This document shows positions 22,468 to 30,360 of a stretch of DNA of 64,000 bases, piece after piece. This DNA comes from Fistulifera solaris. Lineage: Eukaryota. The position numbers and the translations under genes were made by a program. Location: assembly GCA_030295235.1 (NCBI GenBank), contig AP026140.1:186001-250000 (forward strand), written 5' to 3'. The notes under the pieces were generated by a model. It did no database searches. It was not told the origin of the DNA and saw only the letters and a list, made by a program, of their open reading frames with translations. Position 1 is the stretch's first letter, and each line of letters begins with the position of its first letter.

Positions 22468-22712
22468 CTCTATCAGTCGTTTCGATTGTTCATTTTTCAT
22501 TAATAACAATAAACTTTGTCATACCGTACACGAGAACTTGAAAGATAAACGCCGTAGAATCATACGCATCAGAGCGGCATGATATGATTGTGCAACCTGT
22601 TTTGACGCATCCAGAAAAGATGGGCGAGTGGGATAAAAGGTGCGCTTTCACTTCTCCAGAAAATATGAGGGTGTGGTGTTTTCACGTCCCCAGAAAATAT
22701 GGGCGGGTGGTA

Positions 22713-23684
22713 TTATGTATTACAAGCCGATTCGCCGTATGGGTACCAATTGCACAGGGCACAATCGAAGAAAGGACTCTCGGTTCGAAACATGGCGTGT
22801 TCGACTTGTCGCATGACATTTGTAACAGACGTTGGCAAAGGATGCGGTGCCATGAGTTTACCACTGTACGCCAGGGCCCCGATTCCTTCCTCGGCGACCC
22901 ACGCCGTGCCGCGCCGTTCTTGGACATTGGCACCGGTACGTGTAATAATGGTATCAAATTGAAAGGGAATGTCCTGTTGCCAGGCGGAGACGGACTGGAG
23001 ATCAGAAACTCCGCACGGCAGTATATCAAAGGGCAATCGCGAGACGCGCTGTTCGAGTTGCGGCACTGCGAGATTCTGCAAACAAGGGTGACTCGCCATG
23101 AGACCCCGCACCGCCCATCGCACTTCAATCGCTTCCTGCAACGGTATTGTCGCAGCTGTTTGTTCGGCGCGTTCTATTAACATATGAATCCCCGATATAA
23201 TTTTACTTTCTGGAATTAAACCAATTTTGGGGTTCGTTCGCATCAGAGTATGCAAAGCTACCAATGATTGCCGTAATGCTTGTGTTTCTTTGCGTGTGGG
23301 AGGAATCGTGTCATCGTACGGCATCGCAGCCGCTAATACCTTCCTCTCCAAGGCTTCTTGATCAAACGTTTCATCGCACGGCGGCAACTCCATGAATCGC
23401 GTCAACCACTGCGCCGCCCATCGTTGTCGTTTTTCGTGATGAACGTGCTGCGAACGAACATGAGGTGGCAAATTGTCGTCGGTCGGTAGCCATATTGATA
23501 TAGACAAGAGATCATTTGTGGATTGCGCGTCTTGAATGGCTTGACCGATACTGGCGGCCGTTGTCGAGAATTGCAACGTCAAACACTGGGGTGATCGATG
23601 CTGCCGATGTGGAAGAAAGGCGTGGCTGCAGCCAAGCAAATAGGATGCTGTAACTGACAGAAAGACCGGCAGCTTGTTTATCAT
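22713..23684 (-). CDS. AlkB/2OG-Fe(II) dioxygenase-like protein, apparently 3'-truncated
   Basis: Signal peptide ending SHAFLP; RRGTAW..LAYSG..P.P..FDCALCNWY..G..AC resembles the ALKBH2/3-type N-terminal half. The ORF stops just before the expected HxD motif. Confidence 0.6.
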   Translation of the reverse strand: MINKLPVFLSVTASYLLGCSHAFLPHRQHRSPQCLTLQFSTTAASIGQAIQDAQSTNDLLSISIWLPTDDNLPPHVRSQHVHHEKRQRWAAQWLTRFMELPPCDETFDQEALERKVLAAAMPYDDTIPPTRKETQALRQSLVALHTLMRTNPKIGLIPESKIISGIHMLIERAEQTAATIPLQEAIEVRWAVRGLMASHPCLQNLAVPQLEQRVSRLPFDILPCGVSDLQSVSAWQQDIPFQFDTIITRTGANVQERRGTAWVAEEGIGALAYSGKLMAPHPLPTSVTNVMRQVEHAMFRTESPFFDCALCNWYPYGESACNT

Positions 23685-23946
23685 ACTAAGGTGGGTTTCA
23701 TTCAGCCTAAAGAAGGTTCTTATTTTTTAGTTTGTTTTATAATACGAAGTTGAGTAGTCTTATGATGTTTGGTTTGTTTTATGTTGCATCGCAGCATTAT
23801 TTTTTTTTCCTTTGTTTTATGTTTTATCGGCGTTTGCGGCGCCTAGCCCCTGCGGGGGCTTTTTTTCGTTCTCGCCCTTCCCGCAAGCGGGGGCTCGATC
23901 CCCGGGGATAGCGTCACACTCGGGATTGAACAACCGGGACCGACGT

Positions 23947-24406
<460 letters not shown>

Positions 24407-24598
24407 CAGCGCGCTATTATAAATAGATAGATTATCACTTGGGGGAGTGGTGTTTTAACCTCTCCAGAAAATATGGGAGTGTGGTTTCCACGTGACGTGT
24501 CACATGACTGAAATCCAGTCACGGAAAATGTCGTCAACACTTTGGCCTATATACATATAGAATGCTCACCAATTCAGGACACTAATCGACCAAAAATA

Positions 24599-24868
24599 AT
24601 GGATCGCCGCCGTGATTTCACGCCTCTTGTTTTTTCTGTCGACGGGCTCATGGGTAAACAAGCTGTTGCGGCCTCACGCCAGCTTGCAAGAAAGCTGCAA
24701 AAGAAATGGAAGAGACCGTACTCAGAAATTTGTGGGTTTATCCGATCTCGTTTGAGTCTCTCGTTGGTTCGATCGGTGAGCATGCTATTGCGAAATCCGA
24801 GAGATGGCGCGCCACAGCGCAATCCTCCGCACTGGGAAACCGGCGCAGGTTTGTCGCTTTACTACTAA
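24599..24868 (+). mobile_element. 3' fragment of a CRE-like (RLE-type) non-LTR retrotransposon ORF
   Basis: RRDFTPLVFSVDGLMG..A...RQLARKLQKKWKRPYSEICGFIRSRLSLSLVR matches the C-terminus I recall for CRE-clade restriction-like endonuclease ORFs. No RT is present, consistent with 5' truncation. Confidence 0.72.
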
Positions 24869-25416
24869 CTGGGGTACAGTGATTCAGAAATCGGAGTTTC
24901 TGAAAGAAAGAAAAAACAATATTTGTTCCAAAAGAGAAAAACCAGTGGAAAATTCAGTCAAATGTCGATAAAGCATCCGCATTTCAGGAAAATTAAGAAT
25001 AAATATTTAACACACACAGTGAACAACATCAATCAATCGTTGTTTTGTTTGGAATTTCTCAATATTCAGTTCGAAATAATTAGTTGTTTGTTCCTCGAAC
25101 AGAACTGTATTGTTGGCTGTTGCTCTTTGTGTTGGACGACGACTTTTCCGATGACCAAACGTTCATGTTAGGGTTCGCGTTAGAATGACGTACTTTTGGT
25201 AAGATGATGACGTTTGGGAGCTCGACTATCGTGCAAGAAGTAGTCGGGGCGCGTGATGGATGGTCAAGAGTGGATCGGCTCTCGTCCGCGACGAGGACGC
25301 GCTTTGCAACGTACGAACACCTCCGCGAAAGATGCCAACCGCCGTCACAACATGATTCGGACGAGATCTTTGCAGTTTTAGGAGACAAAACATCCGTTTT
25401 AGAGCTATAGAACACG

Positions 25417-28356
25417 ATGAAGTTCTCTGCAGGCGTTGTTTTGGCACTTTTGGTGTCGCCGGCTTCGACATTCGTGCAAAGGCCTTCATTAGTATTTCAG
25501 ACACAGCGGCCAACCTTCCGACAAACGAGCAATCATCGATCGAGCCAATTGCAAGCCGTTGAAATTGCGAATATTTTTACCGCAATTGCGGCGGATCCTG
25601 AAGTAGCGACGGCAGCGGCGAATTCACTCGGCTTGTTGGATGTAGCCGTCTTTCTCGTTCCTCTGGCGGCGTTGGCTGCGGGTGCATCGGCAATTTCGCA
25701 ACGTGATCTCATTCGTAGTGAGATTGATACTACCGAGAGAACGTTAGCCGAAACAAAAGCTCTCTTGGAGAAGTCGGATCAAACTATCAAGGTAAGAAAC
25801 GAATGAAATGGATGCGACAAGAAATTTTATTGATACTAATGTGCTGTTTCCCGATGCGATGTCTAGATATCGTTTGCTACCGCCGCCGCAACCTTTGCGT
25901 TGGCGTTCGCTTATGAACTCGGTGTTATATCAATCCCAGAGACGACTTCGGTATCCTCGTCATCGGATGTAAATACAGTGACAAAAACACAACAAGTGTC
26001 GGAAACGAAGGCGCCATCGAAGATTGCTTCACCCAAAGCCGGCGGAGCCCCAAAAACTAAAGCCGAAGTAAAAACAGAAAAGCCGAAACCGGCGACGGAT
26101 CTGCGTGCTGTCCCACCTTTGCCAGCGGTTGAAAAGGGACCCGACAACTACGATGCGCTATTTGATAAACTTACCGCACCCAAAGACGAAGAAAAGGTAG
26201 AATCTAAAGAAGCGGTAGTCGATCCACCAAAAGAAAAGGAGGAAGTGTCAGAGCAACCGAAGGAGGGTGTAGTGGATTCGCTCCTTCCCAAAACAGTTGC
26301 TAAACCACAGGAAGAGGCAATTGTAGAGACAAAGGAAGAGGCCGCGAAAGAAATGCCAAAGGAGGTTATTCCCGAGCAGATTAAAGAGCAAGGAGGAGTT
26401 GTCAATTCGCTGATGTCGAAAGTCAGCGATGCGAAGGACAGCCCAAAAGAGTCTAAAACGGAGACACCGAAAGAGAAAGAAGGGGTAGTTGATTCATTGA
26501 TGTCAAAATTAAGTGAGAATACGAAAGAAGAAACGCCGCAAGAACCTCCCAAAGCTGCGGCAATCGAACCAGCAAAGCCTAGCGAAGAGTTGAAGGAAGC
26601 GACAAAAGAATCTGTCACGGAACTACCAAAAGCCGAGGCTGCAAAGCCAGAAACGCAAGAGGTGAAGAAAGTTGAAACAAAACCTGTAGAAGAGGAAGTG
26701 AAAAAGACTCCCGAGCAAAAGCCTACTGAAGCAGCAAAGGATACCCCGAAAGATGAACCAAAGACAGAAGAGACGAAGAAGACTGATGTTGTCCCGGCAC
26801 CCGTAAAAATTGTTGCGCGAGCTCCGGATCTAGAACCAGCGAAAGGTGGTGGTGTTGTCGAATCACTTATGCAGAGACTCAATGAAAAGCAGAAGGATGC
26901 GAAAGTTGAGGATGTAAAGCCGAAAGAGGCAGTTGAAGTGAAACCAAAAGCAGAGTCGACAAAAGAAGCACCTGTGAAAGATAAAGCACCTGAACAACCA
27001 AAAGCAACTCCTGCCCCGAAGGAACCGGCGACGAAGGAAACTGTTGCTCCCAAAGTAGAACAAATGAAAGAAACAGTGAAAGCGAAATCACCCGAACCAC
27101 CAAAACCGTTGATTGCACCGAAGGTTGAAAAGGCAAAGGAGGACGTAAAAGATAGTAAGGCGGCAGCTCCTAAAGAATCAGCCAAACAAGTGGCTGTCAG
27201 CTCAAAAACGGCTTCGCAACCAGCGGCTGCCCCGGCATTTGATCTTGGTGACTCTCAGATGGTCGTTGCCGGTGTTGCTGTTGCTAGTATTGGCTTAGCT
27301 GCCATTCTGATTGGATCCGGCGATGACAATGGATCGTCTCCATCCCCTTCGCAGCCAGTTAGCTCTCAGGCAAGCAGCAGTCCTCCCTCTGGTCCTCCGC
27401 AAAAGCCTCCAAGTGTGCCTAAGCCTTTTGACGCATCGTACCTTAACAGTCTAACTCGGGAAGAAACTGCTTTGAAAAACAAAGGTCAAGTTCGCGGTTC
27501 TTACCTCGATGTTATTGACGACACATCAGCATCTGCCAGATTGAAAGGAAAGAAGAGCATGAACAGTCCTTATCTGGAATCACTTCCCAACATTAAGCTC
27601 AACTCGGTACCTGCTGGTCAAGTAAAGGTTCCGCCGCCGGCTAAAATGCAGCAGCCTCCGCCTCCCCCGCAGCCAAGGCCTGAATCCCAAAGACCTCAGG
27701 CCGTCCCTGAAGTTCGTCAAGCTATCCCCCCGCCGCCCCAAGCAACGACACAGCAGGCAGTGCCTCCACAAGTGCAAACGCAACAAGCAATGCCCCCACA
27801 AGCACGAACGCAACAGCCAATGCCACCGCAGCCTGCAATGCCCGAGCCAAAGGCAGAGCCTCAGAATCTTTCGCCCGAGCCTCGAGCGAATAGCGGAGGA
27901 TATCTAGGTGCACTTTCCAACACGCCAGGCATGCCTCCACCAGGACCGAAGAAGAGCTTTAGTCCCATGGGTAGAAAATACAACTCGGCAACTTCCGGCA
28001 CAGGGGCGAGCTCCTATCTCGACAACATGTCATCGAGGACATTTTCGCAACCACCAAGCTACAACAGTCCGCCGCAAAATACGCCACCTCCGAGTAACGC
28101 TTCCTTCGATCCGAATGGCTCTTTGGGACGAGGTATGTCGAGCCCTCCACCCGGACCACAATTTGGTTCTTCCCCCGGTTCCTCTCCGAATGCTCCCATT
28201 TCCCCTTCAGGGCCACCTCCACCGGCGCGTCCAGCTGGTCCCATCAAAAACTTTAGCCAAATGGGCCGAAGATACACGGCCTCTCAAAGTGGCACTGGTG
28301 TGGGATCGTACCTTGACAACATCTCTCCGAGTGAAGGGGATAATAGAACCAACTAA
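25417..28356 (+). CDS. Putative plastid-targeted membrane protein with long low-complexity regions and repeated short motifs (~954 aa)
   Basis: Exons 25417-25791 and 25867-28356 (intron 25792-25866). MKFSAGVVLALLVSPAST-FVQ bipartite signal; three hydrophobic segments; K/E/P-rich then P/Q/S/G-rich regions. Confidence 0.85.
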
Positions 28357-28748: not shown

Positions 28749-30360
28749 ATGTCTTTGCTGCAGCGCAGTATCCTTATCGGTATCGTGCTGCAAATTTGCT
28801 TGTTTTCGCAAGCTATCGCATTCACTGTCGGCACTCAGCAGCATGCTGTTCTTTCGCTACGAAGAGAACGATCGTCTACTACGGAGCTAGCATTCTTCCG
28901 TAGACTCTTTCGACGCAACAAGAAACAAGCTACACCTTCGGAACCGGCACCGGCACCGGCACGCGCCAAGCGCATCCCAGTCGAGCCCGCGGATCTCTGT
29001 GTCATCGGAGGCGGAGTCAGTGGCCTCATGGCGGCCGCCGAAGCTGCCAAAAAAGTCTCCCAAGGCCAAAATCATTCTTCTGGAAGCCGAAGAAACGCTC
29101 GGTGGTCGTGTTCAGTCCGACAAAACACCCGATGGTTTCACTCTGGATCGTGGCTTTGCGGTCTTTATTGAAGATTATCCAGTAGCCAAAACGGTTCTTG
29201 ACTATAAGCAGTTAAAATTGAAGCCCTTCCTCCCGGGAGCTCTCGTCAAAATAACCGAAACAAGCAGTCTGGCAAGGGTGGCCGATCCATTGCGGCAACC
29301 GGAAGAGTTGTTGACTGCATTGTTTGCGCCGGTCGGGACCTTTGTGGACAAAATGCGTCTTTTGCTGGTGATTCAACACGCTTTATCCACACCCGTGGAG
29401 AATTTTTTCACCGAGAATGAAACAGACACCGAGACGGAACTGAAAGAACGATGGGGACTCAGTGATACGTTCATTGATCGTTTCTTCCGCCCCTTCCTCG
29501 AAGGCATCTACCTTGCTCCTCTCAACGAACAGTCGTCACGAATGTTTAATTTTATCTTTAAGATGTTCTCAGCAGGAGCTGCTACCTTACCAGCTGGAGG
29601 AATGGGCGCCATTGCGGAGCAGTTGGCATCGAAAGCAAAAGAGGCGGGTGTCGACCTACGCACCGGTTCTCCGGTGACCAACGTACGAAAAGAAGAAGAC
29701 GGTTATGTCATCACCACGGAACTCGGCAAAGCTGCAATTCGTGCCAAGAACGTCGTTGTAGCCACCGACGGAGCTGCTGCTCAGAAGCTCTTGTCGCAAA
29801 TCAACGGACTCGAAGAGCTTGCGGCCAAACCCGAGCAACCTCAGCGTCAGGTGATGTGCATGTACTATGCCTTTGATGCTCCGGCTCCGGTGGAAGAACC
29901 TATTCTTATCCTCAATGGAGTCATCGGCAAACGAGGAACTCCGGAATGCCCTGTCAACAATGCATGCTTCCCTTCCGTCGTTAACGAGGGTTACGCTCCG
30001 GAAGGAAAGGCACTTTGCAGTGTTACCATTCTGAAAGACATGATGGACGCTTATGAAGGTAAAGAAGGTGACCTCGACAAGGCTGTTCGTGAGCAACTCG
30101 GAACGTGGTTTCCTGAATGCAAGGATAATATTCTCAGCAAGTGGGAACTAAAGGGTACGTACAAAATCAAAAATGCCCAACCCGCTCAACTGGGCGGCCC
30201 CTTTCCCGCCAGCATTAACGGCGGGCGAAGTCCCACGACTTACAGAGGAGTCCTTCCGCAAGGACTTCTAGTTTGCGGTGATCACATGGCAACCGCCACG
30301 CTAAATGGCGCATTGGAGAGTGGTATCCGTGCCGGCGAGGCTGCAGCTAAATTGCTATGA
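28749..30360 (+). CDS. FAD-dependent flavin amine oxidase / phytoene-desaturase-like oxidoreductase, putative plastid
   Basis: Signal peptide ending AIAF; VIGGGVSGL, LEAEETLGGRV, DRGFAVF, CGDH..TLNGALESG. One frameshift at ~29050. Confidence 0.85.

Follow-up and report, generated by a model that had tools for sequence, protein, structure and literature searches.

FisN_6Hh380 of the diatom Fistulifera solaris, an orphan plastid membrane protein with selected short motifs and a plausible pyrenoid-tether role

How the Rubisco matrix of a diatom pyrenoid is held on the thylakoid that penetrates it is an open question, and one to which the gene FisN_6Hh380 of the oil-producing diatom Fistulifera solaris may speak. 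The gene (25417..28356, + strand; two exons, 954 amino acids (aa), GAX22131.1) lies in a window of 64,000 nucleotides (nt), positions 186,001 to 250,000 of contig AP026140.1 in GenBank assembly GCA_030295235.1. A sequence-only reading of this DNA had proposed a thylakoid-anchored scaffold that presents two families of short "sticker" motifs on opposite membrane faces, in the manner of Rubisco linkers and membrane tethers. The gene proves real and under selection, and its product is an orphan plastid membrane protein with an unusual design; a role as pyrenoid tether is plausible, having gained two modest leads and lost some ground on missing tryptophan (Trp) stickers and on the GVV motifs of its first disordered arm. 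The accessible portions of the diatom pyrenoid literature (including bioRxiv 10.1101/2023.10.26.564148 and PMC11142338) name shell proteins, PYCO1, DPC1-4 and bestrophins, and no membrane tether. Neither such a diatom protein nor such a motif is named in the accessible text of a 2026 review (PMC13655443), two diatom pyrenoid preprints, PMC11142338 and an Ulva preprint, and the strings "YLxxL" and "YLDxL" beside diatom and pyrenoid terms gave no match in the openly searchable literature, subscription papers and bioRxiv supplements lying outside that search.

The public protein is identical in length and exon junction to the gene model used here, in which exons 25417-25791 and 25867-28356 flank a GT-AG intron of 75 nt (25792..25866; this and all features of the gene given below are on the + strand) that carries an in-frame stop on read-through. 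A query with the C-terminal arm returned two proteins, both from F. solaris and both labelled hypothetical: FisN_6Hh380 (954 aa) and FisN_6Lh380 (938 aa), the latter 86% identical, encoded on another contig of the same assembly and with its neighbour gene order kept. Because F. solaris is an allodiploid, we treat FisN_6Lh380 as the homoeolog. Its GT-AG intron sits at the same position and measures 74 nt, so that read-through is impossible. The contig of the best sequencing run spans the FisN_6Hh380 intron unspliced, and the run therefore behaves as DNA. Splicing bears directly on the architecture of the protein, since its second hydrophobic helix starts two codons 5' of the intron; the sequence-only reading had listed three hydrophobic stretches, all of which are present, but had passed over the intron on which the second depends. 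Assembly errors were seen at both loci: two compensating one-base errors near 26035 and 26047 make the translation differ from the public protein at about 5 residues, and at the homoeolog locus two single-base deletions (about 4295 and 6400 of the fetched region L004) break a frame that is intact in the public protein.

The N-terminus bears the bipartite plastid presequence that had been claimed for it (25417..25557), with a hydrophobic signal peptide at aa 1-18, Phe at +1 and a transit peptide at aa 19-47 whose 29 residues include 4 basic, 7 Ser/Thr and no acidic ones. It was judged by hand against the description of ASAFind, in the accessible part of which Phe at +1 with a basic, acid-free transit peptide is the pattern of stromal import (ASAFind 2, PMC12136025). 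Hydrophobic helix 1 (25627..25695, aa 71-93) and the Ala-rich helix 2 (25867..25929 in exon 2, about aa 124-146 in all) are marginal membrane spans joined by a charged helical loop (25696..25785), and a third membrane helix follows far downstream (27259..27315, aa 590-608), where the earlier reading had placed it at about 27260-27315. Kyte-Doolittle 19-residue peaks reach 2.17 at aa 71-89, 1.62 at aa 128-146 and 2.46 at aa 590-608; by an approximate insertion scale, helix 3 alone is clearly favourable (-1.3, versus about +1.1 for helices 1 and 2). AlphaFold2, run on the two homoeolog sequences, gave models of low confidence (mean predicted local distance difference test score 34) with helices at 74-105, 110-142, 219-228, 588-607 and 648-664 and at three of four GVV motifs, the rest being unstructured. 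The charges beside helix 3 (1 basic and 2 acidic before, 0 basic and 2 acidic after) are not decisive for topology. Helix 3 likely spans the membrane, and no amino-acid change separates the homoeologs in it (19/19 residues identical). If it does span, the two arms lie on opposite membrane sides whatever helices 1 and 2 do, and that much of the earlier proposal of motifs on opposite faces would follow. The GVV motifs, assigned to one of those faces, show no significant constraint.

The C-terminal arm 2 (27319..28353, aa 610-954) is a disordered stretch of 345 aa rich in Pro, Ser, Gln and Gly (21, 15, 8 and 8%), with 15 aromatic residues, no Trp and an isoelectric point (pI) of 9.85, versus 5.7 for the whole mature protein. 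Six xYLxx[LIM] motifs had been read in it, and six are there, occupying 6 of its 9 tyrosines, a count that none of 20,000 shuffles reached (mean 0.03, maximum 2). Motifs 1-3 (27436..27585, starting at 27436, 27499 and 27568) coincide with a weak Pfam match to DPC2, motif 4 lies at 27898..27915, and motifs 5 and 6 are contained in the two copies of a module, GPxK[SN]FS..MGR[KR]Y..GTG..SYLD (module 1, 27943..28032; module 2, 28237..28326). The duplication, given in the sequence-only reading as K[SN]FS[PQ]MGR[KR]Y..GTG..SYLDN, is borne out by both copies, which are 60% identical to each other over 30 aa. Spacing between successive YL motifs is 21, 23, 110, 38 and 98 aa, and the motifs recur amid otherwise dissimilar surroundings.

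Comparison of the homoeologs indicates that these motifs are maintained. The ratio of non-synonymous to synonymous substitution rates (dN/dS) was estimated from this one pair over 912 of the 954 codons, gaps and aa 183-189 being excluded, and is 0.27 for the whole gene. It falls to 0.027 in the YL motifs plus two flanking residues and to 0 in the KxFS motifs of the modules; together these arm-2 motifs hold 1 non-synonymous and 13 synonymous changes in 80 codons, giving a dN/dS of 0.018 versus 0.34 for the rest of arm 2 (p=0.0003 by permutation of random blocks of the same size), a comparison in which the general tendency of aromatic and hydrophobic residues towards conservation is not fully controlled for. 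The region of YL motifs 1-3, spacers included (aa 646-706), has a dN/dS of 0.05, and the longest strongly constrained block of the protein is aa 48-150 (0.046). The YL and KxFS motifs thus appear, from these substitution patterns, to be clearly selected.

The same cannot be said of the GVV motifs of arm 1 (25939..27252, aa 150-587), an arm that matches its earlier description as a Lys/Glu/Pro-rich disordered stretch of some 430 residues: it is 438 aa long, made up of Lys, Glu, Ala and Pro at 17, 15, 12 and 12%, with a pI of 5.3 and 3 aromatic residues. All four of its GVVxSL motifs are present, at 26266..26286, 26395..26415, 26482..26502 (one base ahead of the start first given, 26483) and 26851..26871, the last three predicted as short amphipathic helices; a further short amphipathic helix, which the sequence-only reading lacked, lies at 26146..26175 (aa 219-228). 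No copy of GVVxSL[LM] arose in any of 20,000 composition shuffles, and none reached four of the looser form G[VI][VI]xS[LI][LM], although the GVV and YL patterns were both derived from this sequence, and the shuffles therefore show repetition, not function. The GVV helices give a dN/dS of 0.125 versus 0.37, their non-synonymous rate is not significantly lower (block permutation p=0.23), and 3 of the 28 GVV motif residues differ between the homoeologs. Of the proposed stickers, the YL and KxFS motifs are thus clearly selected; as far as the substitution data reach, the GVV motifs are unproven as a second selected family.

Relatives outside the species were not found. Arm 2, aa 45-235 and the 50-aa module served as queries in word-index searches, and the last 318 aa in a phmmer search of 1.84 billion representatives; each returned the two F. 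solaris homoeologs only (proteins under 455 aa were covered by the 50-aa-module search and phmmer alone). The ESM Atlas gave no usable feature match (template-modelling scores under 0.3), sequence searches of the PDB gave nothing below E 0.3, and none of 440 pattern matches in metagenome scans was confirmed; the module pattern gave 30 matches, of which two lay in frame, within a single phosphatase-like protein, and were taken as chance. In the F. solaris genome, protein searches recovered the homoeolog and nothing else, a double-YL pattern had no match, and five motif patterns were set against reversed controls (32 vs 20, 14 vs 14, 93 vs 132, 342 vs 448, 79 vs 91). The last of these, a GPxKx[FY]S-type DNA pattern, was without enrichment, 4 of its matches being the FisN_6Hh380 pair, and 35 regions fetched among the other 75 sites held no comparable protein. 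Orphan status of this kind is usual among Rubisco linkers: PYCO1 has no BLAST homolog beyond its own genome, according to the accessible text of PMC10288592.

Could such a protein belong to the pyrenoid? A first lead comes from arm 2. When exon 2 was compared with 24,736 Pfam models, the sole family at E<=1 was PF25195, diatom pyrenoid component 2 (E=0.0022, 18.8 bits), the match covering aa 649-698, that is, YL motifs 1-3, and profile positions 45-96 of 105. The homoeolog matched at E=0.027 and an isolated 73-aa fragment at E=0.052; no match came from pieces that carry the remaining YL motifs. As the only hit among so many models, this profile likeness would be hard to put down to chance, while lying far below membership. 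In Thalassiosira pseudonana, according to the accessible part of Nam et al. (bioRxiv 10.1101/2023.10.26.564148), DPC2 and Rubisco co-purify and DPC2 lies in the matrix of the pyrenoid; in being a matrix protein it differs from FisN_6Hh380. A PF25195 search of the F. solaris genome yielded no candidate DPC2, a control search being equally silent.

A second lead is a likeness between the duplicated module and the repeats of PYCO1. In the sections of PMC10288592 that were available, 4 of the 6 PYCO1 repeats run GPxKNYSM-V-KWSP and most have GTGY later, while both FisN_6Hh380 modules run GPxK[SN]FS-x-MGR[KR]Y and then GTG..SY, so that similar elements follow one another in the order GPxK[NS][YF]S, basic-aromatic, GTG..Y in both. 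The GPxK[NS][YF]S-type head occurred in 60 of 100,000 shuffles, never twice, and head plus GTG..Y in none, a figure that overstates the likeness, which was found post hoc with a pattern widened to fit; the module may thus be likened to a PYCO1 repeat as a lead only. Like PYCO1, FisN_6Hh380 is disordered, lineage-restricted and, by its presequence, predicted to be plastid-targeted, and, as a third lead, arm 2 is basic as PYCO1 is (pI 9.85 versus 10.03, the latter from the same partly accessible source). The working model for FisN_6Hh380 is provided by RBMP1 and RBMP2 of Chlamydomonas, described in the accessible portion of Meyer et al. (2020, PMC7673724) as membrane proteins that carry short motifs and are proposed to keep the Rubisco matrix attached to the membranes of the pyrenoid: the transmembrane helices and the repeated motifs within disordered regions are alike, whereas FisN_6Hh380 is without the [DN]W[RK]xx[LIVA] motif and without a bestrophin domain, and belongs to another lineage with another form of Rubisco. 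A fourth and weakest lead lies upstream, where two TGACGT hexamers (25186..25213), 231 and 209 bases before the ATG, resemble the CO2/cAMP (cyclic AMP)-responsive element; they are kept in the homoeolog, on one strand only in both, but the window holds 70 such hexamers versus 75 expected, and two within 300 bases are therefore a weak hint.

Other observations weigh against a pyrenoid role. The PF25195 scores of 18.8 and 15.3 bits stand against a curated cut-off of 70 and cover half of the profile; the matches of the two homoeologs are not independent, and the comparison is with the profile, not with the DPC2 sequence itself. The part of the PYCO1 repeat that resembles the module lacks demonstrated Rubisco binding in the accessible text of PMC10288592, where Trp is required for it. 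Neither homoeolog contains any Trp, which leaves them without the KWSP[RQ] small-subunit sticker and without the W-x-x-M large-subunit helix; both published Rubisco stickers of PYCO1 are thus absent from FisN_6Hh380. PYCO1, as far as its description could be consulted (Oh et al. 2023, PMC10288592), has six repeats of ~80 aa with Trp stickers (KWSPR; W-x-x-M helix), while FisN_6Hh380 has membrane helices, two modules and no Trp, and the YLxx[LIM] motifs are absent from the PYCO1 sequence rows examined (PMC10288592). The irregular spacing of the YL motifs also departs from the five or six repeats at a regular 60-80 aa that mark linkers. The selection evidence comes from a single homoeolog pair, since no ortholog was found.

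Were YLxx[LIM] a general pyrenoid address in this species, shell proteins or bestrophins might carry it. The YL and KxFS motifs occur in none of 15 distinct F. solaris shell-protein frames longer than 240 aa (20 loci, 27 matches), and [SGP]YLxx[LIM] occurs in none of the bestrophin frames of 30 loci (64 matches). Motif words looked up among Phaeodactylum Rubisco pull-down peptides returned RbcL or unrelated peptides only, with no matching nuclear peptide, in the rows covered (2 of the 56 for "SYL" and 22 of the 36 for "YLN", all RbcL). Nor does FisN_6Hh380 match the PyShell domain (PF25192), and the genome search for the PyShell family omits its locus. In sum, FisN_6Hh380 lies outside the RBMP, PYCO1, DPC2 and PyShell groups: one defining feature of each was tested, and none is present in it.

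In the accessible part of Nigishi et al. (2024, PMC11142338), the C-terminal extension of PtBST3 sorts this diatom bestrophin to the pyrenoid, the motif being left unidentified; PtBST3 thus offers a diatom thylakoid protein with a pyrenoid-sorting C-terminal extension, to which FisN_6Hh380, not being a channel, compares in part. In a homoeologous bestrophin pair of F. solaris (L222, G000:C26:498139-501753; L225, G000:C25:563505-566948; + strand), the C-terminal extension contains three YY[NS]EP-like repeats and ends in a W-x-x-M stretch resembling the large-subunit-binding helix of PYCO1. By its sequence this extension is a candidate for the sorting motif sought in the PtBST3 work, and it hints that the pyrenoid address of F. 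solaris may be Trp-based, which would count against a YL-based one. Among the shell proteins, one pair (L088 and L089, on G000:C15 and C16) has a Tyr/Pro/Met-rich C-terminal tail of ~200 aa, unlike the other shell proteins examined. RbcL in two records labelled as bacterial metagenome-assembled genomes (L134, L146) is 93-94% identical to the diatom protein; these bins probably include algal plastid contigs.

On balance, we favour a nucleus-encoded plastid membrane protein that would act as a tether or scaffold. As its presequence suggests, it would be imported into the stroma and then inserted into a thylakoid. If each of the three helices crosses that membrane, the charged loop between helices 1 and 2 and the basic arm 2 would be stromal and the Lys/Glu-rich arm lumenal. 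Ahead of helix 1 lies a short stretch, acidic and rich in Ala, that may resemble the lumen-facing N-termini of thylakoid proteins, and a basic arm with aromatic motifs in the stroma suits meeting the pyrenoid. Its six YLxx[LIM] motifs and two KxFS modules would be low-affinity sites that jointly dock the membrane on pyrenoid proteins, whether of the matrix or shell, a matrix protein such as DPC2 being one candidate, and not necessarily on Rubisco itself. The hairpin of helices 1 and 2 would likely oligomerise or bind a membrane partner, and the Lys/Glu-rich arm would be a spacer whose short amphipathic helices may touch the membrane or a partner under weaker constraint. We regard a scaffold of this kind, anchored in the thylakoid and docked on pyrenoid proteins by its basic arm, as a serious possibility, if somewhat short of probable. 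Direct binding of Rubisco, a subset of that reading, is unlikely. Doubtful to a similar degree is the more specific notion that FisN_6Hh380 is the diatom equivalent of the proteins that tether matrix to membrane in green algae. It would then fix the matrix or shell of the pyrenoid to the penetrating thylakoid by a Tyr-Leu helix motif that DPC2 also has and by a PYCO1-type repeat lacking Trp, with a second motif arm at work across the membrane.

A plastid membrane scaffold unrelated to the pyrenoid, with motifs that bind some other partner, is about as likely as the pyrenoid reading, and likewise short of probable. Such a scaffold might organise stromal thylakoids (spacing, curvature, photosynthetic complexes) or, at the inner envelope, take part in division or in contact with the periplastid space. 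All of the firm evidence, from presequence, helices, disorder and selection, fits it just as well, the known Rubisco stickers are missing, the YL motifs are missing from the shell proteins and bestrophins checked, and the membrane hairpin, not a repeat, forms the longest block under strong constraint. What such a scaffold leaves unexplained is the match of a single family, PF25195, to the YL block, together with the PYCO1-like order of elements in the module.

The remaining alternatives concern placement and meaning. The topology could be reversed, given the marginal character of helices 1 and 2 and the indecisive charges around helix 3, and this tells against the thylakoid scaffold as drawn above: helices 1 and 2 could form a hairpin with stromal ends, with the Lys/Glu-rich arm stromal and the YL arm lumenal, or the protein could be arrested in an outer plastid membrane. 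Moving a charged arm of 440 aa into the lumen would presumably be a large load, which a stromal arm 1 avoids. The Phe at +1 and the acid-free transit peptide, however, indicate the stroma over the periplastid compartment, and the basic, aromatic arm 2 resembles stromal linkers; we judge a different topology or compartment to be rather improbable. Least credible, and indeed very improbable, is that FisN_6Hh380 is a low-complexity gene in rapid evolution, its motifs being remnants of internal duplication with no binding role. Its orphan status in every search and the GVV motifs, which are not significantly more conserved than arm 1, would fit, but the whole-gene dN/dS, the near absence of non-synonymous change in the 80 arm-2 motif codons and the recurrence of the motifs in unalike contexts speak against it.

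Upstream of the gene, ~2.5 kb (22529-25031 of the window) has no alignment with the homoeologous region and holds a 323-aa open reading frame (ORF; 22713-23684, - strand) with a plastid-like N-terminus and no Pfam match, a CA repeat (23948-24333, continuing to about 24400) and, starting at 24512, a frame of 118 aa that may resemble the end of a retrotransposon ORF. Directly downstream (28749-30360), a gene of the flavin amine-oxidase family with a signal-like N-terminus is split over two frames and is syntenic in the homoeolog, which makes it a useful marker of synteny; a tubulin-tyrosine-ligase-like gene is another neighbour.

If FisN_6Hh380 is not a tether, it is one more lineage-restricted plastid scaffold. 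If it is, it would be a part needed for understanding or rebuilding a red-type pyrenoid, one that comes with short peptides suited to direct testing, and YLxx[LIM] would be a previously undescribed pyrenoid address in diatoms.

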